From the IMG/VR virus record IMGVR_UViG_3300050821_019438: 64,000 nucleotides of DNA. One strand, written 5' to 3'. Numbering within the stretch: position 1 is the first letter of the stretch; the number at the start of each line of letters is the position of its first letter. Position numbers and translations under genes: made by a program. Under the pieces are notes generated by a model, which did not search any database, had not been told where the DNA came from, and was given only the letters and a program-made list of their open reading frames with translations. Positions 4,716-63,621 of this stretch are shown one piece after another. The stretch comes from an uncultured virus (IMG/VR IMGVR_UViG_3300050821_019438) (taxonomy: Duplodnaviria; Heunggongvirae; Uroviricota; Caudoviricetes).

Positions 4716-4803
4716 CTGTTTCTCCTGCGCCTGCGGGAGACCCGCATTCGCATGATTGGTTTCGAGGCGTTTGACTACCGAGGCGAACTACGAACTACGA
4801 ACT

Positions 4804-7005: not shown

Positions 7006-7155
7006 CTACCGTAATTCGCTCCTCGAGTGGTCGCCTCGAAGCATGTCGCCCTTGATGACGGAGAGCTTGCCCTCCACCTCGCGCTTACGTACCAGCGCGG
7101 CGGGACCGTCAAGAGAAAGTACCTTCTCGATGATGTCGGTGGTAGCTTGAGTCAT
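7006..7155 (-). CDS. 49-aa hypothetical protein (below ORF track cutoff)
   Basis: MTQATTDIIEKVLSLDG... with GGAGGT RBS. Confidence 0.5.
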   Translation of the reverse strand: MTQATTDIIEKVLSLDGPAALVRKREVEGKLSVIKGDMLRGDHSRSELR

Positions 7156-7256
7156 CGGATTTACCTCCGGTCACGACCTCAGGGTGCTTGGTAGGCACCG
7201 CTGGGGTCTTTCAATTCCTAGACTAACTCGTCGAACCTGCTCTGTCTACCGACCCG

Positions 7257-7703: not shown

Positions 7704-7776
7704 GCACCTCCACGCGACAACCCAGGCTCAGCATCACTAGCTGAGCCCGGGGAGTCCCATGTGAACCACCGCCGCA

Positions 7777-8079
7777 TCAGATCGCCGCGAGATTCGACGC
7801 GTAAGGCTGGAAGATGCTGGGCAGGTTCATGACTGCCTGCTGTCCGGCCGGCGTCTGAAGCCACGCCTGCTCGTTTGCAGTCACCGGCGTCGAGCCTGCG
7901 GGCAGCGTCGCGGCGTACGCGGCATTGAGCTGGGACGCCTCGTAGATCGTGTACACGATCCCGGCGGCGGTGAGAGTCCCGAGACCGATGAGCAACCACT
8001 CGATGCCGGTCGGGTTCTCTTTGCCGTAAGCGCGGGCGCTGCTGAACCGGCGGTGGGACCGGCGATGATGTCTTCGCAT
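7777..8079 (-). CDS. Small membrane protein: Arg-rich leader, NP motif, TM
   Basis: MRRHHRRSHRR...KENPTGIEWLLIGLGTLTAAGIVY. Confidence 0.7.
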   Translation of the reverse strand: MRRHHRRSHRRFSSARAYGKENPTGIEWLLIGLGTLTAAGIVYTIYEASQLNAAYAATLPAGSTPVTANEQAWLQTPAGQQAVMNLPSIFQPYASNLAAI

Positions 8080-8115
8080 GGGAATCTCCTGTTGGGTTGA
8101 GACGAAAGTACGCGG

Positions 8116-9504: not shown

Positions 9505-9507
9505 GAT

Positions 9508-10080
9508 TCAGCTCACCGCGATCTGCTGCTGCTTCGCGACCCAGTAGTTGTTGAACACCTGCACCCATCCTGGGCCGGGCGAGCCGACCTGGCACACCGC
9601 CATAAGATTGTGCGGCAGATTCGTCACACTCGACGGGCACCAAATCCAATGTTGACCGACCTGCTGCCAAACGCCATGACCGGCTTGCGGCGCGCTCGAC
9701 GGAAACGCTCCCTGCGTGTACCAGAAACCGCGAGGGTCGAACTTGGGCGCGTACTCCTTCGGAGCAGCGACGAGGTGCCCGGCGGTTTGGAGATTGGTCT
9801 TCGCCGCAGCAGGAGGCGCCGAGGAAAGCAACGGAATCTCCACGCCTTTCGACATGGTTGTTTCATCGTGGCTCACTGCTGGCTGCCCAACCCCCTCCGG
9901 TTCGGCTCCGACACCCTCCGGCTCCTTCCCCACACCCTCCGGATCCTTCACGGTGCTCTTCGTCGTCGTCGAGGCATCCGGCCACTTCTTCCTCTCACCT
10001 CCAGGAAGCAGGCCAAGGCCGCGGATGATCCCCTGTGGAAAGACGTATTCCTTGTCCAGATGACGGTCGTCGTCGCTCAT
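9508..10080 (-). CDS. Virion protein with PEGVG repeats and Trp-rich domain
   Basis: Start MSDDDR (ATGA overlap); IRGLG, three PEGVG repeats, GVWQQVGQHWIWCP. Confidence 0.65.
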   Translation of the reverse strand: MSDDDRHLDKEYVFPQGIIRGLGLLPGGERKKWPDASTTTKSTVKDPEGVGKEPEGVGAEPEGVGQPAVSHDETTMSKGVEIPLLSSAPPAAAKTNLQTAGHLVAAPKEYAPKFDPRGFWYTQGAFPSSAPQAGHGVWQQVGQHWIWCPSSVTNLPHNLMAVCQVGSPGPGWVQVFNNYWVAKQQQIAVS

Positions 10081-10565
10081 CTTGCGCTCCTTCGCTTCGC
10101 GCGTCGCACGCGCCGGAATCTTCGTTGCGTTCCGTGACCCATCCGCAGCGGGTTGGATCTCGAGGCCGCCGGAGCAACCGCCGGTCGCATCGCCGTCCAG
10201 GCGATGAACCCCAGCAGCCCGAGCAGTGCCGCGCCGCCGAGGACCCATGCCCAGGTGGGGACGGTCGAAGCGGGCGCCGCAGGAGCCGCAACGGGCGCAG
10301 CAACCGGACCGAGATAGGACACCGGCGGAACCACGAGCGATGTGGATGGAGGCGGAGGGAGCTCCATCCCACCCACGATCGGCGTCGTGTCCGCGACCAC
10401 CGCAGGACCGGGCGGTGTCGCGTCGGCGATGGGAGGAAGAGGCACCGGCGCGGGCATCGTGGCGGGTGCGAACTCGGACCCGGTCATTTGTCCAAGTCCT
10501 GTCGGCCCTGCGGGACCTATGGGAGGAGCGCCGTTTTGAACGGCGGGCGTAGCTGTTGCTTCCAT
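10077..10565 (-). CDS. Pro-rich membrane protein with C-terminal NP motif and Arg-rich tail
   Basis: PTGLGQ; TM WAWVLGGAALLGLLGFIAW; SRSNPLR...RRFRRVRR. Confidence 0.7.
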   Translation of the reverse strand: MEATATPAVQNGAPPIGPAGPTGLGQMTGSEFAPATMPAPVPLPPIADATPPGPAVVADTTPIVGGMELPPPPSTSLVVPPVSYLGPVAAPVAAPAAPASTVPTWAWVLGGAALLGLLGFIAWTAMRPAVAPAASRSNPLRMGHGTQRRFRRVRRAKRRSAR

Positions 10566-10603
10566 GCGCCTACAGTATCAGGCACTCCCAGGCTCGTCGA
10601 GAA

Positions 10604-11356
10604 TCACTGCGCTGAACCCTCGAGAGCGAGATAGACCACGCCGCCGAGCACTACGATTCCCAGCAGCCCGACGACCACCATCGCCGTCGTGGACATGCCA
10701 GTCGGAGCTGCGACAGGCGGCGCGTAATACTGCGTCGGTTGAGACTGGGCCCCCGCGAGCAAGGCCACCATCGCGGCATCGTTCACGACCGATGAGCTAG
10801 CAATCGGCGGGATAGCGCCTGGGTACACGTACCATGCGGCCTTGTACTGCGTGTTCACGAAAGCCGGCGGCGACGGAGGAGTGGGAACGGAGATGACCGG
10901 AGACTCGCCTGGAGCCAACGCCTGAATCTTACCTACTCCGTTGGGAAGTCCCATCACGCCTCCAATGACCGTACCTGATCCACCGAGCCCGCCCGTCTTG
11001 GACACGTAATGCGTTCCGTGCCCCGTGCTTTCCACGAACAGCCCATCGACGCAGATCCAGATTTCGTTCTTGCCGCCCTTTTGATACTTGCCGGTCTTGG
11101 CGTCGTAGCCGGTGTAAACGAACTTGAAGAGGTATCCTCCGAAAGTGAAGTATCGAGGAACCCCGACCGTGGACAGGTAGTAATCGAAGATCTTTTCGTA
11201 GTTGAACGCGGTACCTTCAACCGTGACGGCAATACCGTGTCCGCGCGTGATCACGCGCATCCAATGCTTGCACTGACGAGGATTGTTGGTCGGGACGATC
11301 CACTCCGGCGGAGTGGCGCCGAGACCCCGCACCAGCGCTGGATTGAACGCGTTCAC
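10604..11356 (-). CDS. C-terminally anchored virion protein
   Basis: GTG start, VRGLG near N-terminus, globular domain, C-terminal TM. Confidence 0.7.
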   Translation of the reverse strand: MNAFNPALVRGLGATPPEWIVPTNNPRQCKHWMRVITRGHGIAVTVEGTAFNYEKIFDYYLSTVGVPRYFTFGGYLFKFVYTGYDAKTGKYQKGGKNEIWICVDGLFVESTGHGTHYVSKTGGLGGSGTVIGGVMGLPNGVGKIQALAPGESPVISVPTPPSPPAFVNTQYKAAWYVYPGAIPPIASSSVVNDAAMVALLAGAQSQPTQYYAPPVAAPTGMSTTAMVVVGLLGIVVLGGVVYLALEGSAQ

Positions 11357-11365
11357 GTCTACCCC

Positions 11366-12745
11366 TTAGTCGAGGAGGTAGTACGCGCCCACTCCCGCAC
11401 CGCCGAGCAGCAGCAATGCCCAGAGCCACGCATAGGACGTGGGCACGACCGTCATCGTGGGCGCCCACGCCCAGTATCCGGGACCCGAGTTGATCCACTG
11501 CCCGACACCTGCGGCCGTTCCTGCGAGCTGAGGCGGGGGCGCGGTCGGCCTCGGCAGACCTGGGTTCGGAACCCCGAGAAGTTGATCGGAGTTCGTGAAC
11601 ACGAAGTACGTGTTGACTACGGCGAGCGTGCGAGGAGGTGACGGATACCACATCCAGAAGTGCGGGCGAACCAAGGCCCACACGCCAGGAAGCGTCACAC
11701 CTGGCGGCGGAGCGTTCGGTCGAGATCCGGGCGTCGGCGTCACGAGGACCCAGCTGAACTGACCCAGTCCAGGCGCCGTGACGAACGTCGGAACCCCGGG
11801 AGCCGGAGCATTCGGAGGAAGCGGCAGCGCGAAGAAAGCGGGACCGAGAGGATTCGCGGAATACTGCACCTGAGAGGCGCCTGTTGACGAGAAGGCCACG
11901 CCGACAACCGCTGCGCCTCCTGCTGCCACGGGCACGACCGGTGGCGAGACCGGCACGACCGCCGTATTGACAGTGCATCGGCTAATCACGCCGGTGGACG
12001 GGTTGTACCGTAGAGATGCTCCTCCACCGAGGGTGAAGTAGAGCCGACTGTCAGCGGCTACGGCGCCTCCTCCAGACGTGAGATACGAATTGAGGTTGGC
12101 GACCACCTGAGCATAGGAGTAGCCGTGAAACGAATTCGTCGAAGGCAACGACACCCAGCTGCTTCCGTTGGGGCACGTCACCAGTGGGGTAAAAGTGGTG
12201 ATCGTGCTCACTTGACCGAGACCCCGTACGAGCCTGGTCGCGTCCTGCGCGAACGCACCCTCTTGTCCGACACCGGTCGGAAGACCGTTGATGCCTTGGA
12301 AGTGCCCCGGCGTATGGTATACGGCGCCACGAGGGAAGAGTCCCTCATTGCCAGCCGACAACTCCTCGGAAGGTCCGCTCGAACCCGCTGCTGGTCCGAG
12401 GCGACCGCCGCCCTCACCGCCCACGTTGGACGCCGAGCCTGAAGAAGTCCCGCCCGAACCGATGTTGCCTCGCGGTCCACCGCCGGAGCTTCGAGGCTCC
12501 GGGGTCAAGTTCGTTCCTCCTGGTGTGACTTCACGCCAACCGCCAGGCTGTCCGACTCCTGCCGGCATTCCGGCGACACCGTGGAAGTGCTCTGGCGTGT
12601 GATAGATGGCTTCCTGCGTCGTCGGCGCTCGCAGCGTCAGACCCAATCCTGTGATCGGCATCGCGAAAGCTCGATCTCGAGGAGGACTCGCGGGAGCGCG
12701 TCCAAATCCAAGGTGACGAACGTCGAAGGCGCAATCCTGGGTCAT
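11366..12745 (-). CDS. C-terminally anchored virion protein (spike/adhesin-like), paralog of 12812..13438
   Basis: Seven G[LVF]G motifs before the TM, duplicated YHTPxHFxG unit, TM ending YYLLD. Confidence 0.7.
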   Translation of the reverse strand: MTQDCAFDVRHLGFGRAPASPPRDRAFAMPITGLGLTLRAPTTQEAIYHTPEHFHGVAGMPAGVGQPGGWREVTPGGTNLTPEPRSSGGGPRGNIGSGGTSSGSASNVGGEGGGRLGPAAGSSGPSEELSAGNEGLFPRGAVYHTPGHFQGINGLPTGVGQEGAFAQDATRLVRGLGQVSTITTFTPLVTCPNGSSWVSLPSTNSFHGYSYAQVVANLNSYLTSGGGAVAADSRLYFTLGGGASLRYNPSTGVISRCTVNTAVVPVSPPVVPVAAGGAAVVGVAFSSTGASQVQYSANPLGPAFFALPLPPNAPAPGVPTFVTAPGLGQFSWVLVTPTPGSRPNAPPPGVTLPGVWALVRPHFWMWYPSPPRTLAVVNTYFVFTNSDQLLGVPNPGLPRPTAPPPQLAGTAAGVGQWINSGPGYWAWAPTMTVVPTSYAWLWALLLLGGAGVGAYYLLD

Positions 12746-12811
12746 GGGCGGTCTCTCCTACCTGAGGAGACAGGGTAAACTAGCCTGAGGGGTACCGCAA
12801 CCACCCGATTT

Positions 12812-13438
12812 TTAGTCGATCAGGTAGTAGCCAGCGACCCCGACCGCCCCGAGCCCGAGCAGCACCCAAAGCCAGGTGTAACTCGTCGGCTGAACCTGGC
12901 CCGCCGGAGCGGGCCCCACGCCGTGCGTGGCCAGAATCGCAGCCATCGCGGCAGGGTTGTTGAGCACGGCGATGGGCGGCGCTCCCGAAACGACGATCGG
13001 CGCGGAGCCTCCTGCCTGATGAGCGGCGATAGAGCTCTCGTTCGCGCAAACGCTCACGTTGCCGAAGCCAGGAGTATACATCAACGGTAAACCGGTCTTC
13101 GTCCCCATGTGGAAATAGAAGTTACCGTCAGAGGCAGCTTTCGACGGATACAGGACCGCCCAGCTTCTCATCCATTTGACGAGAGCTCCCGTAAGCTGAG
13201 GCACATTAGGTGACGACGGCGAAGGCGGGTATGCACTCACCCAGGAGTAACCGGCCGGACACGAAATGGGCGTAGCCGACGAAAACAGCATGACCCCGCC
13301 AGGAGGCATGGCCGACAGTCCTACGCCCGTCGGCTTACTGGGTGCAGGCGGCGTCCACGCAAACGCGCGGTCGCTCGCGGAGCCCGGTGCGTCAGACGGC
13401 ACACGACCGAGTCCTTGAATGGGGAAAGCGTAGTCCAT
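12812..13438 (-). CDS. C-terminally anchored virion protein, paralog of 11366..12745
   Basis: IQGLG, DRAFA, CPAGYSWVS, TM ending YYLID. Confidence 0.7.
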   Translation of the reverse strand: MDYAFPIQGLGRVPSDAPGSASDRAFAWTPPAPSKPTGVGLSAMPPGGVMLFSSATPISCPAGYSWVSAYPPSPSSPNVPQLTGALVKWMRSWAVLYPSKAASDGNFYFHMGTKTGLPLMYTPGFGNVSVCANESSIAAHQAGGSAPIVVSGAPPIAVLNNPAAMAAILATHGVGPAPAGQVQPTSYTWLWVLLGLGAVGVAGYYLID

Positions 13439-13447
13439 GTCCTCTCC

Positions 13448-13717
13448 TTACTCGGTCGTATAGTAGACGATGGCGGCAAGAATCGCGACTCCTACCGCTC
13501 CGGCCAAAACATAGGGCACGTACGCGGTCGCGGGCGGAACAGCCGAGGCAACAGAAGACGCCGCTGCGACAGCCTGTAGATTTTGCTGCGCCGCTAGTGT
13601 CGTTGGACTCCAACTCGTAAGACCAGCCTGCGCGTCAGCGATTTGAGCGTCGTTGAACGCCATCGCGGCGTTCGTGATGGCGTCGCTCTGCGCTTGCGTG
13701 ATCCCGAGACCTCTCAT
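13448..13717 (-). CDS. Small membrane protein
   Basis: Start MRGLGITQ (ATGA overlap); C-terminal TM. Confidence 0.7.
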   Translation of the reverse strand: MRGLGITQAQSDAITNAAMAFNDAQIADAQAGLTSWSPTTLAAQQNLQAVAAASSVASAVPPATAYVPYVLAGAVGVAILAAIVYYTTE

Positions 13718-15198
13718 CGCCGAAACAGCCTTCCCGTTCGCGCTGCCGCGAGTCTCGCCGTCTCCACAGGAGAGGTGCGCGTATACGCCGAGTACCCGAG
13801 CACGCCGATGAGAAGCGCACCCGCGGCGCCCGCGGCGACCGCGCCGACCTTGCTCGAGGTGGTGAGAGAGGGAGTAAGAGCAACGGGTGTCGCAAGAACA
13901 GGCGGAGTCGTCCAACACTCGGGACCCGTCCAGTTCGCACCCTGCGCCAAGGCTCGCGCCATTGCAGAGTAGTCCGCAAGAAGCTGATGAACCGTAAGCT
14001 GAGCCTGCGTCATAGACCAACCGACGCCCTGAAGAGTGTGCCCCGGATACCCGAGCTCGAACTTCTGCCCTCCATTCGGTTGAGTTGAGCCAAATACGTT
14101 TCCGTGTAGGCTCAAAATGTACGCCTGAATGGATAGCTCACTGACGATCGACATCGGCGAGGCACCGCGACTCAGCATGCCAAGAACGGTCGCCATGGCG
14201 TTGATGCCGTCAGGGTTTCGATAAATGGTCTGCCCAGACGTCAAAAAACTGCTGTTGCTTGCATTACCGTAGAGGGTCATTCCAAAATACAGAGGGTCCG
14301 GTCGTCTCTGTTGAGCTCTCTGAACGATGACCTCTTGCGTCAGCGTGTTGCTCACACCCTGCGTCGACTGAATCCACGTATTTTGCAGCGAATCAGCGCT
14401 GTCTTTGGAATTTTTCCGATACAGGTCTAGTACACAATTTCCGACGAGCCCACCGGGCCCTGAATTCGTTGGCGTCGACCAATTCCACCACACGGGTGTG
14501 CAAAGTGCCTGCTCTTCACTTTTCCCGTTATTGCCATTCGCATTGGGAACGGATTGCAGAGATATTCCGTTGACGTCTTCGTTCAATGCCGCCGGTCCGT
14601 AATTCGGCAAGATCTGCAAAAACAAATCAGTAGCCAGTGCTCCGAACGCGAGTTTCCTCCACGTAGACTCTCTCTTCGAAATCGTCGGAGGATGAGCGAC
14701 GGCACACCAATCGGCCATGGCCCAGCCTTGAGGGTTGTTCGACCGAGGGTCGCGGTACGTGCTCGCATAACTGAGTACGCGCTGCGTGATGACCTCGGTC
14801 GCTTGACTCACACCACCGGTTCCGGTGACACCCAAGAACGTTCCAGCGCTCGCAAGACCTTCAACGAGTCCCGCTACAGCACCGACTGCCGCTCCATAAG
14901 GTCCAGCGATAGAAGCCCCGGCTAGAGCTCCGCTCAGAACATCGGAGGCCATGGTGGCGACTTGTGCGTACTCGCCGCCACCAATGCTGCCGATGAAAGA
15001 AATGCCCGCCTGAGCAAGCGACGCAATCGAGTCCGAGCTACCGCTCTGAATCGCATTGACGAGATTCTGTCCATGCGAAATGGCTTCGGACGGGTTGGAA
15101 GGAATGCTCGAGAGCTGGTTCTGAGGATTGTTGAGCTGAGAGATCAGCCCAGAGGCTGACGGCGGTATCGCCGGTTGCCCCAGTCCTCGAGCGCGCAT
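13714..15198 (-). CDS. Large membrane-associated virion protein with glycine zipper (possible entry protein)
   Basis: MRARGLGQ start; GALAGASIAGPYGAAVGAVAG; C-terminal TM; visibly lower GC than flanks. Confidence 0.65.
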   Translation of the reverse strand: MRARGLGQPAIPPSASGLISQLNNPQNQLSSIPSNPSEAISHGQNLVNAIQSGSSDSIASLAQAGISFIGSIGGGEYAQVATMASDVLSGALAGASIAGPYGAAVGAVAGLVEGLASAGTFLGVTGTGGVSQATEVITQRVLSYASTYRDPRSNNPQGWAMADWCAVAHPPTISKRESTWRKLAFGALATDLFLQILPNYGPAALNEDVNGISLQSVPNANGNNGKSEEQALCTPVWWNWSTPTNSGPGGLVGNCVLDLYRKNSKDSADSLQNTWIQSTQGVSNTLTQEVIVQRAQQRRPDPLYFGMTLYGNASNSSFLTSGQTIYRNPDGINAMATVLGMLSRGASPMSIVSELSIQAYILSLHGNVFGSTQPNGGQKFELGYPGHTLQGVGWSMTQAQLTVHQLLADYSAMARALAQGANWTGPECWTTPPVLATPVALTPSLTTSSKVGAVAAGAAGALLIGVLGYSAYTRTSPVETARLAAARTGRLFRR

Positions 15199-55318: not shown

Positions 55319-55558
55319 TCAGCCTGTCGCGACGGCCGCCGGTTGCATGCTTTCGTAGACGAGATAGCCGCCGAACGCGACCGCGAGGACGCAGCCGGCG
55401 AGAAGCGGAAGATCCGAGCCGAAAATCGGATTGGACCTCGACCGTCCTGCCTTCCGATACGCGATGGCGATGGCCTGCTTCTGCTTGTAGCCATCATGGC
55501 GTAGCGTTCGGATGTTGTCGCTGATGACTTGGTTGGAGCTTCCGCGGCGTAACGGCAT
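55319..55558 (-). CDS. MPLxxG-type small basic phage domain, NP motif, TM
   Basis: MPLRRGSSNQVISDNIRTL...QKQAIAIAY then RSNPIFG and TM. Confidence 0.7.
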   Translation of the reverse strand: MPLRRGSSNQVISDNIRTLRHDGYKQKQAIAIAYRKAGRSRSNPIFGSDLPLLAGCVLAVAFGGYLVYESMQPAAVATG

Positions 55559-55646
55559 CACTTTCCTCTTCCGCTGAAATGAATCGCTGCAATGACCATG
55601 ACTGCGACGACGGCCGCCAAGCCGAGCTTGATGAGCAGGTCGTTGG

Positions 55647-55916
55647 TCATCGAGGAATCGGTTCCTGCTCACGCTTCATGCGAGATTCGTAGTTCGCGGC
55701 GTCGTATCCGGCGGCCACGTACTGCTCGAGCGTCGGAAGAAAGTAATCGCCGTGATCGGGGTGGCACTTCTTCCCGGACTTGCCCATCTGCGGGTGAGTC
55801 CACACGCCGTTGATCAACGCCGACCCGCAATTGGAGCACCAGGACTGGATCCGCACCGTTGCATCGGTGGCCCCGTCGGTTTTCGACGAGGCGCCCGGGT
55901 GCTTGCAGTCGCGCAT
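55647..55916 (-). CDS. Small Cys-containing hypothetical protein
   Basis: MRDCKH...WCSNCG...PTLEQYVAAGY; TGATG overlap. Confidence 0.55.
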   Translation of the reverse strand: MRDCKHPGASSKTDGATDATVRIQSWCSNCGSALINGVWTHPQMGKSGKKCHPDHGDYFLPTLEQYVAAGYDAANYESRMKREQEPIPR

Positions 55917-56359
55917 CAGCCCCCGGAGAGTGGGGACATCGCCGGGTTCGTGATCTGCGGCGCTCCTGCGGTCGCCTGGTAGACCGACTGCGTAGGCGTC
56001 GTGGGACCGAAGAGACCGGGCTGTTGTCCTGCGGGCGTGGTTTGGTCGGGGTTGACCGACATGAGACCGAGCTCGGGGAGCCCTGGTCCGGTGCACTGGG
56101 CGCCCATGCCGAGCACGCCGTTCTTGTTGATGGACGCGGCGGCCCAGATGCCGGCGGCGATGCTCGAGGCCAGGCCGGCGGCGGCCGTGATGGCGAAGCC
56201 TTTGCGGTATTCGTCGGACGCGACGGCGCCGATGATGCCGATGAGCATCGCAAGGCTGCCGCCCCCGGCGAGGACCATCTGGGGGATGGTCTGCGTCTCG
56301 TCGACGTACGTGCACGTGGGCATTACTTGTCCGAGACCGCGATGACGACGACGAACCAT
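55916..56359 (-). CDS. Two-TM virion membrane protein
   Basis: MVRRRHRGLGQ leader, two hydrophobic helices. Confidence 0.7.
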   Translation of the reverse strand: MVRRRHRGLGQVMPTCTYVDETQTIPQMVLAGGGSLAMLIGIIGAVASDEYRKGFAITAAAGLASSIAAGIWAAASINKNGVLGMGAQCTGPGLPELGLMSVNPDQTTPAGQQPGLFGPTTPTQSVYQATAGAPQITNPAMSPLSGG

Positions 56360-56363
56360 GGGA

Positions 56364-56591
56364 CTATCTCCTTTTCAGTAACATCAAGGCGGTGAGCCCG
56401 CCGACCAGCAAGAGCGGTACGCCCGCCCAGTAATTGGATTCGTTGTAGAGCAGTCCGGCGCCGAGGCCCACCGCGGCAGCGCTCCCCGCGAGCAGGAGCT
56501 CTTCTTCCTCGCCCTCGTTCTTCGAATACGCGTAGGCCGCGCCGGCAGCTCCGAGAGCTGCGGCGGGGATGAGCGTAGCGGGGGCGGTCAT
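56364..56591 (-). CDS. Small multi-TM protein
   Basis: 75 aa, three Gly/Ala/Leu-rich segments. Confidence 0.6.
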   Translation of the reverse strand: MTAPATLIPAAALGAAGAAYAYSKNEGEEEELLLAGSAAAVGLGAGLLYNESNYWAGVPLLLVGGLTALMLLKRR

Positions 56592-56595
56592 GGCT

Positions 56596-57141
56596 TCATC
56601 CTACCGCGGAGGGGCCGAGGGGGGTAGTGCTGCCGCCGGAGCCCAGATCCGTCTGACTCGTGAACGGCACCGGGATGGGTCCTCCCGGCATGTCGATGGG
56701 CGGGAGCGGGTCGACGCCGGGCGTCGTTGGCAAGAGGAGTGGCAGCGTGTTCCGGACGGTAGGGACCGACGCCATCATCTTCTGGTAGATGAGGTAGCCC
56801 GCCACGCCGACGATTAGCGCGCCACCTGCGAGCAAGATGACGTCCTGAAGAGCGCCGGCAGCGGCGAGTTGGAAGATGCTCGGCTGCGCAGGGTTTTCGT
56901 CGAAATCTTCGTCGTCGACTTCGTCACCCAGTGCCAAAGCGTTGATCGCATCATCTCTCGTAGGCTTTCCCATGACGAGAACTTCGCCCTTGCGGTCCCA
57001 GACCCACCATGAGCCGCCAGCCTGGTCGACGATCAATCCTTCCCGCTGGATGCGCTTGTGCGCATGGAAGCGTTTGCTTTTACAGGTCTGACAGTAACCG
57101 GTAGACCCGATTGTCTGGTTTCCGCATCCTGCGCAGCGCAT
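56596..57141 (-). CDS. Zn-finger domain, NP motif, TM
   Basis: MRCAGCG...CQTC...FDENPAQ...TM. Confidence 0.7.
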   Translation of the reverse strand: MRCAGCGNQTIGSTGYCQTCKSKRFHAHKRIQREGLIVDQAGGSWWVWDRKGEVLVMGKPTRDDAINALALGDEVDDEDFDENPAQPSIFQLAAAGALQDVILLAGGALIVGVAGYLIYQKMMASVPTVRNTLPLLLPTTPGVDPLPPIDMPGGPIPVPFTSQTDLGSGGSTTPLGPSAVG

Positions 57142-57452
57142 CAGCCACCAGCGGACGGGTTGTAGGTCGCCGAGGGACCGAGCGCGCCCGGCGTCTGGTT
57201 CGAGAACACGCCGATGCCGCCGGGCGTGACGTACGAGAAGGTCGGGTTTCCGCTCGAGTCGACGCCGGTCTGAATCTGCGTCGGAGGAGCGTTCGCTTCG
57301 GCCGCAGCGGCTTGGGACTTCGAATAGAGGAAGTAGGCGAGTCCGCCCACGATCGCGCCGATACCGATGAGAATGAGCCCGTCGGTGTAGGTCGTGACGG
57401 GACCGGCGATGGGATTGCGGCGTGAACGACGACGTCTCGGGTTGATCATCAT
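57141..57452 (-). CDS. Arg-rich leader, NP motif, TM
   Basis: MMINPRRRRSRRNPIAG...TM. Confidence 0.72.
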   Translation of the reverse strand: MMINPRRRRSRRNPIAGPVTTYTDGLILIGIGAIVGGLAYFLYSKSQAAAAEANAPPTQIQTGVDSSGNPTFSYVTPGGIGVFSNQTPGALGPSATYNPSAGG

Positions 57453-57793
57453 AGCTGGTTCCACCAATTGGCGGCAGACTGAGCTGCGGTGACCGCAGGA
57501 GACTGAGCCTGCGTTTGAACCGTCTGGTTTGCGTTGTAGATCTGGTCGCTGACGTTTTGCGCTGCCTGGGACGCTTGAGCGATTTGATTCGCCACGCTAT
57601 CGGCCGAGCTCGATGCTCCGGAGATGACGTCATTCGTGTTGGCCAAAGTGTCTTGGGCCTGACCGAGCTGGTAAATCGCATAGACGATCGCGCCGAGCAG
57701 CGCAGTCCCCATGCCGAGCATGAGTATCGTGTTCGTGTTCAATCCGGTGTCTTGCGGATTGGGACGTCGATAGTGGCGGCGACGACGCTTCAC
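57449..57793 (-). CDS. Arg-rich leader, NP motif, TM, Gln/Ala-rich helix
   Basis: MKRRRRHYRRPNPQD...TM. Confidence 0.72.
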   Translation of the reverse strand: MKRRRRHYRRPNPQDTGLNTNTILMLGMGTALLGAIVYAIYQLGQAQDTLANTNDVISGASSSADSVANQIAQASQAAQNVSDQIYNANQTVQTQAQSPAVTAAQSAANWWNQL

Positions 57794-58038
57794 GACCCCC
57801 ACCTGTTGCCGACGAACACGGCGGCGATGATTCCGCCCACCCCGATGAGACCTCCGGCGATCATCTCGGCGTCGCCGGCTTCAGGGTCGAGCGCCATGCC
57901 GAGCCCAACACCGGCCGCAGTCGTCCCGGCAATTTGGGCAATCTTTCGGACGTCGCTGCCGGTCGACAAGATTGCCGCGCCGATGCCGAGGACGGCGCCG
58001 AGCGAACCGAGCTCGATGGGGATGCCGAGGTCTGCCAT
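57790..58038 (-). CDS. Small three-TM protein
   Basis: 82 aa, Gly-rich hydrophobic helices. Confidence 0.65.
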   Translation of the reverse strand: MADLGIPIELGSLGAVLGIGAAILSTGSDVRKIAQIAGTTAAGVGLGMALDPEAGDAEMIAGGLIGVGGIIAAVFVGNRWGS

Positions 58039-58048
58039 GGGTGTCCTT

Positions 58049-58255
58049 TCAGCTGCCCGTCACGGTCGCAGGCGTCAGGTCGATGATGCGCTGCGCGTTC
58101 TTCCCTGCGTTGTACAAAAGGTAGCCGAAGAAGCTCGCGGCGAGAACCCCGCCGCCCGCAAGCCAGAGAGCCTGCTCGGTCGTGAAGGTCGTGAGCGGGT
58201 TCTCGCAGCTCGAGCAGCAGCGCGCCGAGCGCTTCATCATGGTTCGCCTTCGCAT
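58049..58255 (-). CDS. Basic leader, NP motif, TM
   Basis: MRRRTMMKRSARCCSSCENPLT...TM. Confidence 0.65.
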   Translation of the reverse strand: MRRRTMMKRSARCCSSCENPLTTFTTEQALWLAGGGVLAASFFGYLLYNAGKNAQRIIDLTPATVTGS

Positions 58256-58257
58256 GG

Positions 58258-58671
58258 TCAGCTTCCTTGGGGTCCGGTCGGTTGGTTGGCAGGCAGCGGC
58301 ACGGTCGAGCCGCCGGAACCGATCACACCGGGGGGTTGGGTCGTGGCGACGGTAGCGGGCGTTTGCTGCGACTTCCAGATGAGGTAGCCGACGAGCCCGA
58401 GAACCGCAGCGCCGCCGACGACCATGCACGTCATCTTGAGGTGCTCCTCGTCGGTGGAGGGGTTGCGCTTTCCTGCGCCACCGCCTTCGCCCTCTACGTA
58501 CGACTTCGCGAGTGCGAGCGATGAGTGGTAAGGCCCGATGCGACGAAGGTGCTGGTCGCTTCCGTAGAGAACGACATACCCTTTGGGCCACTTCAGGATC
58601 TCGTACACGCGTGTGCCGCTTTTCGCGGTCCAGATCTCCACGCCGTCTTGCTGACGAGTTGACCAGTTCAT
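58258..58671 (-). CDS. Soluble domain, NP motif, TM
   Basis: About 65-aa globular domain then KRNPST and TM VVGGAAVLGLVGYLIWKSQ. Confidence 0.7.
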   Translation of the reverse strand: MNWSTRQQDGVEIWTAKSGTRVYEILKWPKGYVVLYGSDQHLRRIGPYHSSLALAKSYVEGEGGGAGKRNPSTDEEHLKMTCMVVGGAAVLGLVGYLIWKSQQTPATVATTQPPGVIGSGGSTVPLPANQPTGPQGS

Positions 58672-58943
58672 GCGACCCGTCCTTCGCTCTCGGCGGTGAT
58701 TCGAATTCGATCGGAGACGCTCGCTTCTGGGTCTTCATCGTACTGCTCGACGGCGTAGTCGCCGCCGTAGTGCCGAGCTCCGGCGCGGCTGTAGATGAGC
58801 ACGTCGATGTAGACTGGGCTTTTGCCGGACATGCCCATCGAGACCGCGAAGCCGGCGGCTTCATCGGGTGTCTTGAAGATGCGCTCCTGCCCCGAGCCGT
58901 CTTCGACGGCGTACTCGACGTCTTTATGCGTGTGCTTCGCCAC
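58668..58943 (-). CDS. Small acidic soluble protein
   Basis: 91 aa, GGAGG RBS, no TM. Confidence 0.65.
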   Translation of the reverse strand: MAKHTHKDVEYAVEDGSGQERIFKTPDEAAGFAVSMGMSGKSPVYIDVLIYSRAGARHYGGDYAVEQYDEDPEASVSDRIRITAESEGRVA

Positions 58944-58946
58944 GAC

Positions 58947-59207
58947 TCAACCTCCCGCGCTGGCTTGGGCCGGTGTGACGTTGCCGAGCTGGATCTGCTG
59001 CATGACCCAGGCGTCGTACGCCTCCTGCGTTGCGTTGCTCGGCGCGGTGGGGGCGCTCGGGCTTGCTGCGGCGGAGCTCGCGTTCATCTTTGTGTAGAGC
59101 CCATACGCGACAAGCCCTACGACGGCGACGCCGAGGAAGGCCAAGCCGAGGTCTTCGGAGCCGGTGAGCGGGTTGGGGCGGCGGAAACGCTTCAATGAAC
59201 GACGCAT
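58947..59207 (-). CDS. Arg-rich leader, NP motif, TM
   Basis: MRRSLKRFRRPNPLTG...TM. Confidence 0.7.
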   Translation of the reverse strand: MRRSLKRFRRPNPLTGSEDLGLAFLGVAVVGLVAYGLYTKMNASSAAASPSAPTAPSNATQEAYDAWVMQQIQLGNVTPAQASAGG

Positions 59208-59217
59208 GGGGGCTCCT

Positions 59218-59637
59218 CTATGTACCTGAAACAAATGGCGGGACGGCGTCCTGCGCGTCGGCTTGCTGCTGAGGCGTGAGCTGGTTCTGAGCGACGGGTG
59301 AGACGGGAGATGCGGCGCTCGAGGATTGTGAGTTCTTCCAGATGGAGTACCCGATCATCGCAACGGCTCCGACGCCAATGGCGATGAGAGCAGCGGTTGC
59401 GGGCGCGATAGGGTTCTCTCTCGCGAAATCACCCCGCTCATCGAGGAGGTCGACGGTGCCGCGCTCGTTCATGTAATAGACGTCGGAATAGAACCCCTCT
59501 TTCTCCATGCGCCGTCGCGCGGCGGAGAACGCGGCATCTCGAGTTCGGTACTTGCCGAGAGAGTGCCCGCTGGTGAAGAGCATGTACCCGCCGGACTTCG
59601 CGTCCGTGATGATGTAGTCGTCTTCTTGAGGTTCCAT
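59218..59637 (-). CDS. Soluble domain, NP motif, TM
   Basis: About 70-aa domain then ARENPIA and TM. Confidence 0.7.
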   Translation of the reverse strand: MEPQEDDYIITDAKSGGYMLFTSGHSLGKYRTRDAAFSAARRRMEKEGFYSDVYYMNERGTVDLLDERGDFARENPIAPATAALIAIGVGAVAMIGYSIWKNSQSSSAASPVSPVAQNQLTPQQQADAQDAVPPFVSGT

Positions 59638-59640
59638 GGG

Positions 59641-60435
59641 TCAGACCGTTGGTGTTCGCGTCACGAGGTAAGCGATCCCCAATATGCCGGCTGCGGCAGT
59701 GACGAGCCCGACGACTACCAATGCGGTGCTGGGGCCGGCAGAGACAGGAGTGATCGGCGCAGGAGGAGGTGCCAGGTAGGGAGAACCTCCGCTTCCGGGA
59801 CCCGGTATAGTCACAGGCGCAGGAGGCGGCGTGTAAACGCCTGGCGCTGTAGCGCTTCCCGGAACCCAGATATAGTAGTTGGGAGCTGGGTTCAACCAAC
59901 GAGCCGGAGAACCAGCACTGACCGCTGCCATGTTCCCTGCCTGCGGTGGACTGGTTGGAGCAGGAAACGGAGCTGCTGTCGGATGCCCGGCGGAGTCAAT
60001 CGGACCCGAGTAGTTAGGCCGCGCCTGGGCGTACACGGAATAGGTAAGTCCGTCACCGCCCACCATTTGACTGGAAGGGCTGATGATGTCCGGAGATATT
60101 GCGTTGCCTCCTGATGCTGTATCGTTGTATCCAGGACTTACGACAGTCCATGGGTACCAGATCCATTTAGTGGGCTCGCTCGGACCCGCAGGAATCCAAG
60201 ACCCGGTTGTGTTGCTCGGCTGATGTGGAGGAGGCACTACGTTCAGCTGAGTAGGGTAGGGCGGATCGACCAAAAGGACGTGCGGATTGGTAGCGTCGGC
60301 CGCAGTAGTGAAGTAGTTCCACATGGTGCCGGCACCCGGTCGAGCCTGGACCCACCAGAGCCCGGACGCACCAACGGGAGGCAGTCCGACCTGAAATGAG
60401 GTCGGCGTAGTCGGTTGTCCCATTCCTCGGTTCAT
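59641..60435 (-). CDS. Pro/Trp-rich C-terminally anchored virion protein
   Basis: MNRGMGQ start; three Trp-rich units; C-terminal TM. Confidence 0.7.
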   Translation of the reverse strand: MNRGMGQPTTPTSFQVGLPPVGASGLWWVQARPGAGTMWNYFTTAADATNPHVLLVDPPYPTQLNVVPPPHQPSNTTGSWIPAGPSEPTKWIWYPWTVVSPGYNDTASGGNAISPDIISPSSQMVGGDGLTYSVYAQARPNYSGPIDSAGHPTAAPFPAPTSPPQAGNMAAVSAGSPARWLNPAPNYYIWVPGSATAPGVYTPPPAPVTIPGPGSGGSPYLAPPPAPITPVSAGPSTALVVVGLVTAAAGILGIAYLVTRTPTV

Positions 60436-61142
60436 TGGAGGATAGAACCGGGAACTCCTGGGTTTCCTGGTGCGCCACTGTATGGCACAACGGCGCCGCT
60501 GCCGCCGAGGTTCGGGTCGTAGACCTGACCTCCTGGTGTGCCGCTGCCGCCGAGGTTTGGATCGTAGACCTGGCCTCCCGTTACGACTCCGTAGTTCGGA
60601 GCGCCGGGCGTACCGGGAGCCGGCGTCGTTCCAGGCATCGGTGTTGTAACGACAGGCAGCTGTGCAGCGGTCGACGCGGCGCCCTGCGACTTCCAGATGA
60701 GGTATCCGACGATGCCGAGGACCGCGGCTCCAGCCGCAGCGACGCCGACTTTTTCGCCAGTTGAGAGAGAAGAGAAGGAGAGTGGATTGCGTCGGCTCAT
60801 TTCGGCAGCTCCTGGCTCACCAAAGAGCCCCTTCGGTTTTTCTTCGATGTGATGGTGTCGTTCGTACTCGAGTTGGTAGAGCGGCTCTTCTCTACCTCTC
60901 TTGAGGTAGGTAATGAACAGGACGCCGTCGTCGTCGCCTTCGATGTCGAGATCGTCCGCGACCATCCAGCTGTTCAAGTAGCTGCCGTCGACGAGTGCCA
61001 TGACGAGAGCGCGGTTGCTGACACTCCATTGGCCGGACTTGTTTTTCCTGTCCGTGCGAACGCTGACGTGACCCGCTTGGCCGTCGCTACCAGGTTCGGG
61101 GTGAACCTTGTAGATGACGGTGCTCTTGTTGGCGAAGCTCAC
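60432..61142 (-). CDS. Soluble domain, NP motif, TM, Gly/Pro tail
   Basis: About 115-aa domain, SRRNPLS, TM, two GGQVYDPNLGGSG repeats. Confidence 0.7.
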   Translation of the reverse strand: MSFANKSTVIYKVHPEPGSDGQAGHVSVRTDRKNKSGQWSVSNRALVMALVDGSYLNSWMVADDLDIEGDDDGVLFITYLKRGREEPLYQLEYERHHHIEEKPKGLFGEPGAAEMSRRNPLSFSSLSTGEKVGVAAAGAAVLGIVGYLIWKSQGAASTAAQLPVVTTPMPGTTPAPGTPGAPNYGVVTGGQVYDPNLGGSGTPGGQVYDPNLGGSGAVVPYSGAPGNPGVPGSILQ

Positions 61143-61151
61143 GAGCCGATC

Positions 61152-61490
61152 TCAGCCCAGCTCGATGTTCTGCGTCACTGGAGGGGCGGTCGCGGCCGAG
61201 GGGCCGTACGCTGTCGAGGTCGAGTAGTCGATCCCCTGCGTGCTGGCGGCCGGCATGCCTGTCGAAGTTGACGTACCGAGCTGGTAGGGCTGATTGCCGC
61301 TCGAGATGGTTCCGCCACCCGCCGCCGCGGTCGAAGCCGCCTGCGACTGGTTGTAGAGGTAGTAGCCGATGCCACCGATGACGGCGACCCCAGCGAGCGC
61401 GAAGGCGATCTTGGCGCCGTCGGACATGCCGGAGGACTTGGAAGAGGGACGTGGGTTTTTGTAATACGATTGTGTGCGGCGACGGGCCAT
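61152..61490 (-). CDS. Basic leader, NP motif, TM
   Basis: MARRRTQSYYKNPRP...TM; AGGAG RBS. Confidence 0.72.
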   Translation of the reverse strand: MARRRTQSYYKNPRPSSKSSGMSDGAKIAFALAGVAVIGGIGYYLYNQSQAASTAAAGGGTISSGNQPYQLGTSTSTGMPAASTQGIDYSTSTAYGPSAATAPPVTQNIELG

Positions 61491-61675
61491 GGGATTCTCC
61501 TATAGGACGTCCCCCTTGACGAGGACCGTCATCGTGCACATGCGAGCATATCCCACCCAAACCAGCTAGTCGAGGTTGACCAGAAAGTCGGTTCCGGGCA
61601 CGGTTTGGGAGACAAAAAGCGGCCCGACGGCGTTCCACCGCCCCGGGCCCGACCATCACCTTGTGCGAGGCGACG

Positions 61676-62131
61676 ATGAGTCAGGCTATCACGCTCGAAT
61701 ATTTTCGAAGCCCATCTTTCGTAGACTGGTTCTTCGGAAACACCTGCCCAGAGCCTAACTCTGGTTGCCTTCTATGGACCGAATCGCTCGACAAGGATGG
61801 CTACGGAAGAGTCAGGACCACATGGAAGAAAAGCGGGAACATTCCAGCGCATAGATTGGCCTGGCTCATCGCTTACGGTCGATGGCCCGAGCCGTGTGGT
61901 TTGCATAGATGTGATACGCGTCCGTGCGTGAACGTGCAGCATCTCTTCGAAGGGACTCGAGAAGACAATATGCGCGACATGTGGAGTAAGGGAAGAGGCG
62001 CACAGACCCAAAAGACGCACTGCCCTAACGGCCACGAGTACGCAGGCTATAACTTGATATTACACGGAAGGCGCAGATATTGTCGCACCTGCATGAATGA
62101 GCATAAACGTAACTTCCGTGCGCGGAGCTAA
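61676..62131 (+). CDS. HNH endonuclease (homing type), opposite strand to the virion module
   Basis: SGCLLW, GYG, AHRLAW, HRCDTRPCVNVQHL, DNMRD, THCPNGH...CRTC. Confidence 0.88.
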   Translation: MSQAITLEYFRSPSFVDWFFGNTCPEPNSGCLLWTESLDKDGYGRVRTTWKKSGNIPAHRLAWLIAYGRWPEPCGLHRCDTRPCVNVQHLFEGTREDNMRDMWSKGRGAQTQKTHCPNGHEYAGYNLILHGRRRYCRTCMNEHKRNFRARS

Positions 62132-62682
62132 CGTGTTGCGACCGGCGCCATGTACGGGTGCTTCGACCACCAGGAAAAGGCTCTTTCCATGCGTCGCCGC
62201 GCTTGCGGTTCCCCTGGTTCGCAGTGGCCAACGGTGTAGCCGGTGATGCGGTCGGCTGGCGGCCCGAACTTGCACATGGCCCACGAGTCCCGGAGCGCGC
62301 GGAGCATCCCGCGGAAGCATGAGACGCGGTCGGTGAGCCCGCGAGCGTAGTGCGACGGCTCCTCGTCGTGTAGCTGGGCGATGCACCAGGCGTGTCCTCC
62401 GTCGCCGGTAGGCTTGTCCTGGCGGTCCACGTCGGAGCGAAACTGTCCTGACTCGTAGCTTGCGATGGCCAGCATGACGAGCGCGGTCTGAGCTCGACCT
62501 ATTTCGCCCCCGGCGAATAGCGGAACCTCGTCCGGGTCGAGTGCAACGGTCGCCAGATCGGAAGCGATGCTCTCGTAGCGTGCCTCTGTCTCGGCTCGAG
62601 GTGTCTTGGTGTAGTCGTGGACCGAAGGCGGTGCCCAGAGTGACATGGCGGCGAGCAGGTAAGCAGCGAGTCCGTGAAGCAT
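62128..62682 (-). CDS. Secreted lytic transglycosylase-like (lysozyme-fold) protein
   Basis: Signal-like N-terminus; LAIASYESG catalytic-Glu pattern; GDGG...CIAQL; later GYTVG. Confidence 0.55.
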   Translation of the reverse strand: MLHGLAAYLLAAMSLWAPPSVHDYTKTPRAETEARYESIASDLATVALDPDEVPLFAGGEIGRAQTALVMLAIASYESGQFRSDVDRQDKPTGDGGHAWCIAQLHDEEPSHYARGLTDRVSCFRGMLRALRDSWAMCKFGPPADRITGYTVGHCEPGEPQARRRMERAFSWWSKHPYMAPVATR

Positions 62683-62819
62683 GCGAGACCTCCGTGGTTC
62701 TGCGTTCGAAGGAAGGCGGAGGTTCTAGCGCAGACAGAGACTCAAGCGCAAACTTCAATCCTATTCAGCTCATGCGATATGCAGGTTGTGCGCCACGCTG
62801 ATGAAGATAAAGTAGACGC

Positions 62820-63047
62820 ATGGCCACCCTCATCTACTTCTTCATCCAGCTCCTCGTCCTCATCTGCGTGTTCTCGCTATTTTACTACATCATCCAGCTG
62901 ATCGTCGGAGAGATCCCAGTGCCGGCAAAGTCGAAGGTAAGAGCAGCGCTGCTCATCCTCCTCTGCCTCATCGCGATTTGCTGCCTGCTCGGTAGCGTCG
63001 GTTTATGGGACGCGCCGTGGGCGTTCAGCCATCGTCCGAAGTGGTAG
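62820..63047 (+). CDS. Two-TM membrane protein (holin-like candidate)
   Basis: 75 aa, two hydrophobic helices, divergent from the transglycosylase-like gene. Confidence 0.5.
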   Translation: MATLIYFFIQLLVLICVFSLFYYIIQLIVGEIPVPAKSKVRAALLILLCLIAICCLLGSVGLWDAPWAFSHRPKW

Positions 63048-63078
63048 TGGCGCTACGACCTAGCGCTTGCGCTTCGCC

Positions 63079-63621
63079 TCAGTTGAGTTGTGATGTTGAG
63101 CCTTGCGGACCGGGCACGCGTCCCATTCCCGCGGCAGGACCTGTGAGACCGACAGCGCCTCCGGTACCTCCGGTCGCGCCCGTGGCACCCGTGGGTCCTG
63201 ATGTCGTGCTCGCGGAGGCGGTCGACGACATGATGACAGAGCCGACTACGAAGAGGACCGCGGCACCTGCGGCGGCGATGGCGACTTTCTGGCCGGTGGA
63301 GAGACCACTGCTGCTGCTTCTGGAGCTCTTACGTCTTCGCATGGGATTGTTTCCTCCGTATTCGAGTAGACCCTTGCGGACCTTCTCGAAGTGAGCTTTG
63401 GCTTCGGCGCGGCTTCCCGCTCTCGTTGTGAAGGTTCTACCAGACTCCTCGTCATACCACTCGTAGACCGGAGCTCCAGAGCCGAAGTATTTTCCCTCCC
63501 ACGTGTAGCCGTTGCGATCGAGCCGTACACGTTGAAAGTCGATTCGACCCAAGGGAGCAACAGGTGGACTCACACGATTGTAGGAGCCCGTTCTAGGGTC
63601 TAGTTCGAACCTGACAGCCAT
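63079..63621 (-). CDS. Soluble domain, NP motif, Arg-rich linker, TM
   Basis: RVRLDRNGY...YFGSGAP domain then GNNPMRRRK...STGQKVAIAAAGAAVL. Confidence 0.7.
   Translation of the reverse strand: MAVRFELDPRTGSYNRVSPPVAPLGRIDFQRVRLDRNGYTWEGKYFGSGAPVYEWYDEESGRTFTTRAGSRAEAKAHFEKVRKGLLEYGGNNPMRRRKSSRSSSSGLSTGQKVAIAAAGAAVLFVVGSVIMSSTASASTTSGPTGATGATGGTGGAVGLTGPAAGMGRVPGPQGSTSQLN

Follow-up and report, generated by a model that had tools for sequence, protein, structure and literature searches.

Positions 55319-63621 of the 64,000-nucleotide stretch of DNA analysed here (the window; IMG/VR record IMGVR_UViG_3300050821_019438) form a late-type operon of an uncultured phage, and most of its genes are members of a single-pass membrane protein family that has expanded. 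An Asn-Pro (NP) pair stands shortly before the single transmembrane (TM) helix of these proteins. By alignment, the NP-TM genes are one homologous module and not eleven coincidences. Orthologue and codon comparisons place the NP pair under selection, and protein alignments show that different N-terminal parts (heads) have been exchanged exactly at NP. We read the module as a membrane anchor with a short linear recognition or hinge motif that ties interchangeable heads to the membrane the virus uses, and we give this reading a probability of about 0.5. Genes are named below by their first coordinate, and the operon is also called the cassette.

The operon lies on the minus strand and is tightly packed, with stops and starts that overlap or nearly abut. 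Translation confirmed all eleven NP motifs that an earlier reading of the window's letters (the original prediction) had listed here, each before one helix, on the minus strand and in the order listed. The further cases it had named were also real: KENP at 7777, SNP at 4804, an NP after the TM helix at 10077 and ENP in the leader of the capsid protein. Five of the eleven operon genes carry only a leader before NP (11-21 residues) and six carry a domain (42-118 residues), the same split as had been described, and both reported anchor strings were found, one common to 58258 and 60432 and the other to 60432 and 63079. Ten of the operon genes, together with 7777 and 4804, share a module of about 45 residues. 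A cluster of basic residues comes first and [R/K]-x-Asn-Pro-[L/I]-[S/T/G] next; a spacer, polar or acidic, then leads to a Gly-rich TM helix and a tail. The spacer between NP and the helix is mostly 5-8 residues long (range 0-21), an acidic residue often stands just before the helix, Gly occupies fixed helix positions and the helix ends in G-Y-x-h-[Y/W].

We compared the window with three IMG/VR records that have homologues of the capsid candidate at 3474-4715. These were G001 (127.5 kb, terminal repeats, capsid candidate 94% identical), G002 (55 kb, 72% identical) and G003 (60 kb, terminal repeats, 67% identical), so that the relatives' genomes span 55-127 kb. The window is collinear with the part of G001 from 39.6 to 104 kb at 68-93% nucleotide identity, and the order of the cassette is conserved and collinear between the two. 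Enrichment was counted with crude gene calls and a Kyte-Doolittle TM predictor, taking NP within 25 residues upstream of a helix. In the window, 13 of the 27 single-TM proteins had NP in this position against 1.6 expected (~8-fold); among these 13, the TM calls of 3474 and 11366 are doubtful, and 58049 and 4804 escaped the count. The corresponding counts were 26/49 in G001 (expected 2.6), 9/25 in G002 (expected 1.0) and 5/20 in G003 (expected 1.3). Enrichment was thus 8 to 10-fold in the window, G001 and G002, and 4-fold in G003; binomial P values for these counts overstate independence, because the module genes are paralogues. Downstream of the helix, NP occurred in 2/27 window proteins and in 5, 1 and 2 proteins of G001, G002 and G003. 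NP was the most enriched dipeptide upstream of helices (9.8-fold; 56 occurrences there versus 190 elsewhere).

For a profile of the module, 47 NP-plus-helix segments were taken from the four genomes. Three unconvincing segments (G001 14163, 93066 and 96985) and one that crossed a locus boundary were dropped, and the remaining 43 modules were aligned. Searched against 1.84 billion representative proteins, the profile matched 363 clusters at E ≤ 1e-3, 17 of them at E ≤ 1e-10. Among the best 150 matches, 143 had NP and one helix (a count biased upward by the NP fixed in the profile), four had the helix with NQ, NQ, NA or NT, and three were repeat proteins that we judged false. The flanking pattern recurred in the 143 NP-TM matches: R/K at position -2 in 108, L/I/V/M at +2 in 95, S/G/T at +3 in 104 and a G[YFW]..[YWF] helix end in 131. 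The family is unannotated, and the 363 clusters have no Pfam or PHROG model. Pfam searches of 21 cassette proteins at E ≤ 1 gave only sub-threshold, TM-driven matches, such as Chordopox_A13L (E 0.003, below its cutoff). A tblastn search with one module against a phage collection gave no match, although the low-complexity filter may hide the module, and a protein atlas returned scores of at most 0.80 for one leader-only member, which we treat as a lead only. Neither the motif nor the virus group was described in the titles and abstracts searched.

Comparisons of orthologues, which are less biased than the profile counts, also show NP to be conserved. The pair was kept in 10/10 orthologue pairs of the window and G001, while the preceding residue differed in five of them. 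In the 60432 family, N119 and P120 were invariant in 9/9 sequences and the flanking residues varied. The Arg-rich core protein encoded at 4804 kept L-S-N-P-L-S-G in 4/4 genomes. The 44 module NPs of the window and G001-G003 use all eight Asn/Pro codon pairs, and what is selected is therefore the amino-acid pair, not a particular DNA word. Eight window proteins with a TM helix at or near the C-terminus all lacked NP upstream of it, so NP is not a general habit of this genome's helices. As a separate observation on codon choice, the module Asn was encoded by AAT, the rarer Asn codon, in 25/44 cases, versus 41/177 at other Asn positions of the same genes (Fisher P 3e-5, uncorrected for relatedness among the window and G001-G003).

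The part before NP is the variable one, a leader in about two thirds of members and a small domain in about one third. Leader-only members made up 92 of the 143 NP-TM matches, with about 10 Arg-rich residues before NP, and heads of at least 40 residues made up 51; heads reached 130 residues. BLAST grouped these 51 heads, all from the 150 best profile matches, into 35 clusters, the largest with seven members; 35 is an upper estimate of the kinds of head, because several may share a beta-beta-alpha shape that BLAST does not see. Pfam recognised one family, DUF6582, in 1/51 of the head-bearing matches. The six heads of the window had no significant similarity to one another (best E 0.2). Proteins 58258 and P0257 became similar two residues ahead of NP and were 75% identical over the remainder of their length, whereas their upstream parts were unrelated. 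In the same way, only the anchor and what follows it could be aligned between 56596 and the orthologue at its position in G001, which starts M-R-R-R-N-P. These two comparisons bear out the earlier proposal of a modular NP-TM cassette attached to unrelated N-terminal parts. The sole DNA repeat within the cassette (58366-58407 versus 60684-60725, 90% over 42 nucleotides) encodes the anchor end common to 58258 and 60432.

As a check, the original prediction had suggested searching the domains before NP for stand-alone homologues without the anchor. Such homologues were found for one head only, the 40-residue head of 55319. It matches positions 1-44 of the 52-position phrog_2423 profile, and tblastn found its motif in 116 phage records. 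The motif also forms the N-terminus of head-maturation proteases of tailed phages; in Acinetobacter phage AB1 it is the very N-terminus of the annotated protease. The head of 58258 had three homologues, all anchored, among proteins of 75-240 residues, and the head of 63079 had four, all anchored, among proteins of 99-315 residues; shorter stand-alone forms of both are possible.

The eleventh gene, 63079, is a special case. All five inspected homologues of its head (three from the head search and two, P0245 and P0269, from the module search) have a basic NP downstream of the head, and in P0275 and P0159 a further NP closes the head and aligns with the NNP of the window protein. The window copy lacks the downstream basic NP and has lost the GY end of the anchor. 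The predicted NNP is therefore present, but as the end of the N-terminal domain and not as the NP of the module, which has been lost. Because of this, we describe the cassette as ten canonical members and one decayed member.

The 20 residues before the helix contained a mean of 4.4 Lys and Arg, compared to 0.7 in the 20 residues after it. By the positive-inside rule, this bias would place heads and NP in the cytoplasm, with the tails across the membrane. Tail sequences are of low complexity (median 66 residues, 67% Ala/Thr/Pro/Gly/Ser/Gln), and 15/143 end in Gly-Gly. The original prediction had proposed that the heads are packaged on the inner membrane face and may be released. In PRD1-type assembly, the cytoplasmic face becomes the side that faces the capsid and not the genome.

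We modelled 60432 with AlphaFold from an alignment of nine sequences (mean predicted local distance difference test score (pLDDT) 58.7). The head (residues 1-100) was folded, with pLDDT ~80, and residues 103-140, which hold the NP at 119-120, were mostly below 50. The helix spanned residues 130-152, starting 10 residues after NP (low confidence), and the tail was disordered. In this model, the NP of 60432 would lie neither within the fold nor in the first turn of the helix. No clear relative emerged when the fold of the head was searched; the top match, at Z 5.8, has no known function. The protein at 10077 has S-R-S-N-P-L after its TM helix, beside a basic C-terminus; NP therefore travels with the basic side and not with the start of the helix. 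The low-confidence linker around NP and this inverted case are our reasons for reading NP as a linear motif.

Several observations link the module to the virus particle. The module occurs in a core gene, 4804, that adjoins the capsid gene in 4/4 genomes, and the 55319 head is the N-terminal motif of head-maturation proteases. The third link is the capsid candidate itself (3474-4715, minus strand), whose all-beta model looks like a jelly roll with its best, weak matches among membrane-containing viruses, in genomes where no terminase, portal or tail genes were recognised. The capsid candidate has more than 401 homologues, and none of the 120 listed had a Pfam family. Its AlphaFold model (54 sequences, pLDDT 84.5, predicted template modelling score 0.82) is all-beta, in two halves that each have a helix. 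An aligner independent of Foldseek ranked jelly-roll capsid proteins of membrane-containing viruses near the top: SPV1 (Z 5.3), STIV (4.9) and PRD1 P3 (Z 5.2), the last aligned along the whole of both proteins over 154-165 residues, and at Z 3.9-4.7 HHIV-2, HCIV-1, P23-77, FLiP and PBCV-1. No HK97-type chain was among the fold matches listed. The model thus weakly supports a jelly roll best matched by capsid proteins of membrane-containing viruses. Foldseek with the same model returned only papillomavirus L1 (template modelling score 0.08) and nothing from BFVD at E ≤ 0.001, and no match came from comparing a capsid-family profile with the sequences in PDB or from a tblastn search of the phage collection. 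An NP in the capsid leader was present in only 14/54 homologues.

Terminase, portal and tail families were not found in the window, G001 or G003 (121, 83 and 68 proteins searched with Pfam; 59 and 24 with PHROGs), apart from weak 'tail protein' PHROG matches at E ~2e-5. The conserved structural module is unusually rich in membrane-anchored proteins. We somewhat favour a tail-less, membrane-containing particle on these grounds, and a virion membrane is plausible from the gene content.

The module was unevenly distributed. The four genomes have about 24, 12, 8 and 4 copies, and other genomes have from 14 to none. Twelve of 30 further IMG/VR records of the capsid family matched the module profile at E ≤ 1e-3, mostly over the helix only. 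Matches that included the NP part were confined to five records, G004 (14 matches) and G005-G008, whose capsid proteins are 44-70% identical to that of the window; records with capsid proteins ~40-43% identical had no matches or helix-only matches. A module match lay within 10 kb of the capsid gene in 6/37 loci. Because NP-part matches occurred only where the capsid protein was at least 44% identical, we interpret the family as an expansion within one subclade.

Taken together, these data suggest that the module anchors interchangeable heads to a membrane used by the virus, probably the virion membrane. NP would be a turn in a flexible linker that is read by a putative viral assembly partner, and would not be a self-cutting bond of the FlhB kind. 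The presence of the module in an Arg-rich protein of 678 residues beside the capsid gene suggests that some heads bind nucleic acid, as the Arg-rich head of 4804 itself probably does. Several points weigh against this reading. The partner that reads NP is hypothetical, and the NP counts among the profile matches are biased upward, because NP was fixed in the search profile. Five members without Pro keep Asn (NQ, NQ, NA, NT and NE), and the retention of Asn where Pro is lost would also fit an Asn-based chemistry. The structural matches of the capsid candidate are weak (Z ≤ 5.3, below the aligner's own trust level), and its protein-atlas features point to the HK97-type family SU10_MCP (score 0.95, low shared count). 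Pfam and PHROGs recognised no ATPase for packaging, whether of the FtsK/HerA or another type, and a Walker-A scan found only replication-type ATPases. Finally, the confinement to a subclade means that the module is no general assembly requirement of the virus group.

The strongest of the alternatives, possible but on balance unlikely, is that these proteins act in the host membrane, for example in superinfection exclusion, lysis timing or host takeover, and are not part of the particle. NP would then be an inherited hinge or helix-start signature of a duplicated family. The wide variation in copy number between relatives is typical of accessory arms-race genes and would suit such a role, as would the fast turnover of N-terminal domains; the virion membrane, moreover, is something that we infer. 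A host-membrane role is harder to reconcile with the module's presence in a conserved core structural gene beside the capsid gene in 4/4 genomes, with the conserved and collinear cassette of the window and G001, and with a head that is a head-assembly motif. A helix-start signature also conflicts with the modelled helix of 60432, which begins 10 residues after NP (low confidence).

NP may instead be a processing site, at which self-attack by Asn (asparagine-lyase type) on assembly, or a viral protease, frees the leader or head. The invariant Asn, the nearly invariant Pro, the five exceptions that keep Asn and the exchange of domains exactly at NP all speak for cleavage, and candidate proteases exist in the Transglut_core protein at 8119-9504 and in the subtilase beside the cassette in G001. 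Self-cleavage at Asn-Pro beside a TM segment is also documented for RsgI, and cited for mu1 and VP5, in PMC10328401. In the known Asn-Pro self-cutters, however, a folded turn holds the bond, whereas NP here falls in a linker predicted to be disordered, and 92/143 members have only ~10 residues ahead of it. NPTH occurred in 0/143 matches, no similarity to any autoproteolytic domain was detected, and the residues after NP (L/I, then S/T/G) are unlike those of all known sites. We consider processing at NP improbable.

A more specific version, which we regard as decidedly improbable, is that the module is a loading and release tag of a new large, jelly-roll, membrane-containing phage lineage. Whatever head stands before Asn-Pro would enter the particle on its membrane. 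During assembly or entry, the Asn-Pro bond would break by Asn-driven self-cleavage as in reovirus mu1 and free Arg-rich peptides and small effector domains together with the genome.

The leader and NP might also form a class III (type IV prepilin-like) signal, from which a prepilin-type peptidase removes the leader at the cytoplasmic face and leaves a hydrophobic N-terminal helix. Prepilin signals have a short leader, Gly at -1, a hydrophobic residue at +1 and Glu at +5. The layout is the same (short basic leader, conserved motif, hydrophobic helix), and an acidic residue often stands 4-6 residues after NP. The motif itself largely refutes this reading: the would-be -1 residue is Pro or Asn and never Gly (Pro in 143/143), the spacer of 0-21 residues puts the acidic residue at no fixed distance, the parts before NP are at least 40 and up to 130 residues long in 51/143, and no Peptidase_A24 or N_methyl match was found with Pfam. 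Lastly, Asn and Pro are common at helix starts, but an ordinary helix cap at background frequency, an explanation the original prediction had itself raised, is refuted by the 8 to 10-fold enrichment in three of four genomes (4-fold in G003; ~8-fold in the window) with NP as the top dipeptide, by the absence of NP upstream of C-terminal anchors in the same genomes, and by its conservation across orthologues with varying codons and in a profile that finds 363 clusters.

The members of the cassette, all on the minus strand, are as follows. The first, 55319-55558 (RSNP), carries the basic 40-residue head of phrog_2423 type (E 2.9e-15), and its orthologue G001 97091 keeps RSNP. The DENP protein at 56596-57141 has an 82-residue Cys-x2-Cys (zinc-ribbon) head, for which the sole Pfam match was weak (DZR_2, E 0.026). 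It is followed by two leader-only members, 57141-57467 (RRNP; 83% identical to G001 98710) and 57449-57802 (RPNP, with a Gln/Ala-rich tail; 90% identical to G001 99012), and by 58049-58258 (CENP), with a basic, Cys-bearing leader and an orthologue, G001 99611, that has SENP. The KRNP protein at 58258-58671 has a 69-residue head and shares its anchor and tail, with a different head, with P0257. Translation and comparison with G001 identified 58947-59234 (RPNP) as leader-only, and 59218-59637 (RENP) has an acidic 74-residue head and an orthologue with KENP (G001 100811). The folded head of 60432-61142 (RRNP), described above, is 118 residues long, and the leader-only YKNP protein at 61152-61490 has a YTNP orthologue (G001 102599). 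The degenerate member, 63079-63621, consists of a 91-residue head ending in NNP, a basic/Ser linker and the anchor without its GY end.

Three further minus-strand genes carry NP near a helix outside the cassette. In the structural module, 7777-8079 encodes a leader-only KENP protein whose orthologue, G001 48393, keeps KENP. The 678-residue protein of 4804-6840, adjoining the capsid gene, has an Arg-rich (18% Arg) N-terminal half, L-S-N-P-L-S-G and a TM helix with the GY motif. The gene at 10077-10565 has, by translation, the inverted layout of a TM helix followed by S-R-S-N-P-L and a basic C-terminus, and no clear orthologue was found.

The remaining cassette genes on the minus strand lack the module. 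They encode a soluble Cys-rich protein of 89 residues without a TM helix (55647-55916; 88% identical to G001 97411), a two-TM protein with N-terminal R-G-L-G-Q and orthologues in G001, G002 and G003 (55916-56359), and two small two-TM proteins identified by translation and comparison with G001, one Gly/Ala-rich (56364-56591, 75 residues) and one Gly-rich (57790-58038, 82 residues). A soluble 91-residue protein without a TM helix (58668-58943) is 98% identical to its G001 copy, compared to 68-90% for its neighbours in the cassette, which indicates unusually strong constraint. The Pro-rich protein of 264 residues at 59641-60435 has, by translation, a C-terminal TM helix without the NP module; it lacks a G001 orthologue, and an NP-TM gene (101258) occupies that position in G001. 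The gene at 62128-62682 encodes a 184-residue protein with a hydrophobic N-terminus (88% identical to the G001 copy). We considered a lytic transglycosylase for 62128 and rejected it, as neither Pfam nor PDB gave a match and the protein does not resemble the SLT-like one encoded in G003. On the plus strand lie a homing-type HNH endonuclease gene (61661-62131; Pfam HNH_3, phrog_826 E 1.1e-31) and a gene for a 75-residue two-TM protein (62820-63047; 79% identical to G001 103633). The HNH gene is a recent insertion into the minus-strand operon, because the corresponding junction in G001 has only ~36 nucleotides. A subtilase-family (Peptidase_S8) gene directly adjoins the cassette in G001 (104082-105422; locus L018 4085-5422), whereas 63079 and a TPR-like gene take this place in the window.

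Many proteins of the conserved structural region (390-15198) have a terminal TM helix, which is unusual for a capsid gene cluster. In some the helix forms the C-terminus itself (with endings such as Y-Y-L-I-D), and in others a few basic residues come after it. A second motif, h-x-G-[L/V/F]-G-[Q/K/R]-x-P, turns up repeatedly in structural-module proteins, close to their N-termini and also internally, and is present in G001-G003 as well. In the window, it occurs at 3474-4715 (residues 15-22), 8116-9504, 9508-10080, 10604-11356, 11366-12745 (eight copies), 12812-13438, 13448-13717, 13714-15198 and 55916-56359. G17, G19 and P22 of this motif are at least 90% conserved in the capsid family. The adenovirus protease consensus is (M/L/I)-x-G-x-G, which the second motif resembles, and by this analogy it may indicate where maturation cleavage takes place. 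The capsid candidate and the transglutaminase-like protein of 8116-9504 share a near-identical 14-residue C-terminus (V-P-A-G-V-V-G-T-A-x-x-A-G-G), and several cassette proteins also end in Gly-Gly (55916, 57141, 58947).

The window has a G+C content of ~62% and encodes a family-A DNA polymerase, a PrimPol-VapE primase, ThyX, RadC, methylases and an HNH endonuclease as its replication genes. Pfam assigned a family to 11/121 open reading frames (ORFs) of at least 150 residues, PHROGs to 7/59 chosen proteins, and neither recognised any structural gene of the window. Megablast of the region against phage records gave no match. The more than 401 capsid homologues lie on contigs of up to 198 kb, with complete genomes of 55-127 kb. 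Capsid relatives occurred only on short contigs of metagenome-assembled genome bins labelled Acidimicrobiales, Binatia and Polyangiaceae, which gave no host assignment.

The analysis defines a viral membrane-protein family with a near-invariant two-residue seam at which heads have repeatedly been exchanged. A sorting or processing role of the seam, if confirmed, would account for the choice of proteins for the membrane of a widespread, uncharacterised group of large phages, and foreign proteins could then be linked to a viral membrane by means of a tag taken from nature. Should NP have no more than a structural role, the module would still help to annotate these genomes.

Among known systems, FlhB undergoes autocleavage at the Asn-Pro bond of NPTH, and the original prediction had likened the module to FlhB/YscU. 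The data do not support this analogy. NPTH was absent from all eleven genes as well as from the 143 matches, the NP lies in a linker with pLDDT below 50, and Bac_export_2 was not matched with Pfam at E ≤ 1 in 21 cassette proteins or at E ≤ 0.01 in 121 ORFs. Proteins of the Bac_export_2 type have four TM helices and a folded cytoplasmic domain that holds the NP, whereas the proteins here have a single TM helix. A broader likeness remains to Asn-Pro self-cutters, namely FlhB/YscU and the proteins covered by PMC10328401 (RsgI, reovirus mu1 and aquareovirus VP5), which also have a conserved Asn-Pro beside a membrane-spanning or membrane-active segment. In RsgI, according to that paper, the pair sits on the outer side, beyond the TM helix, where a turn links beta1 to beta2 within a folded domain; here it precedes the helix on the basic side, in a linker predicted to be disordered, with neither NPTH nor a homologous domain. 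The same source mentions viruses that use Asn-X self-cleavage to free peptides in particles.

The cassette also resembles the gene organisation of PRD1-type phages, in that clusters of TM-protein genes lie in a late operon alongside a capsid candidate whose model weakly resembles a jelly roll, and no tail genes were found. PRD1-type phages (Tectiviridae and kin) have small TM proteins in the late operon and a jelly-roll capsid, without tail genes. Against the likeness stand the lack of sequence similarity, genomes here of several times the size (55-127 kb), the weak fold match (Z 5.2) and the fact that no ATPase of FtsK/HerA type was recognised. We know of no NP motif in PRD1-type small membrane proteins, and none was found in the literature searched.

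As a mechanism, our preferred reading resembles eukaryotic short linear motifs. NPxY is a eukaryotic sorting motif, and NPF is read by the EH domain in eukaryotic membrane traffic, as described in PMC12370899. In both, as we propose here, a partner domain recognises Asn-Pro within a disordered part of the cytosolic sequence; the analogy is one of mechanism only, since NPF and NPxY are eukaryotic and need an aromatic residue after NP, and the partner here is hypothetical. As a design, the module resembles the tag of T4 internal proteins, a short common sequence through which unrelated and interchangeable cargo proteins enter the particle. The T4 capsid-targeting sequence is N-terminal, soluble and cut off by the prohead protease, whereas the common part here is C-terminal to the variable part and spans the membrane.

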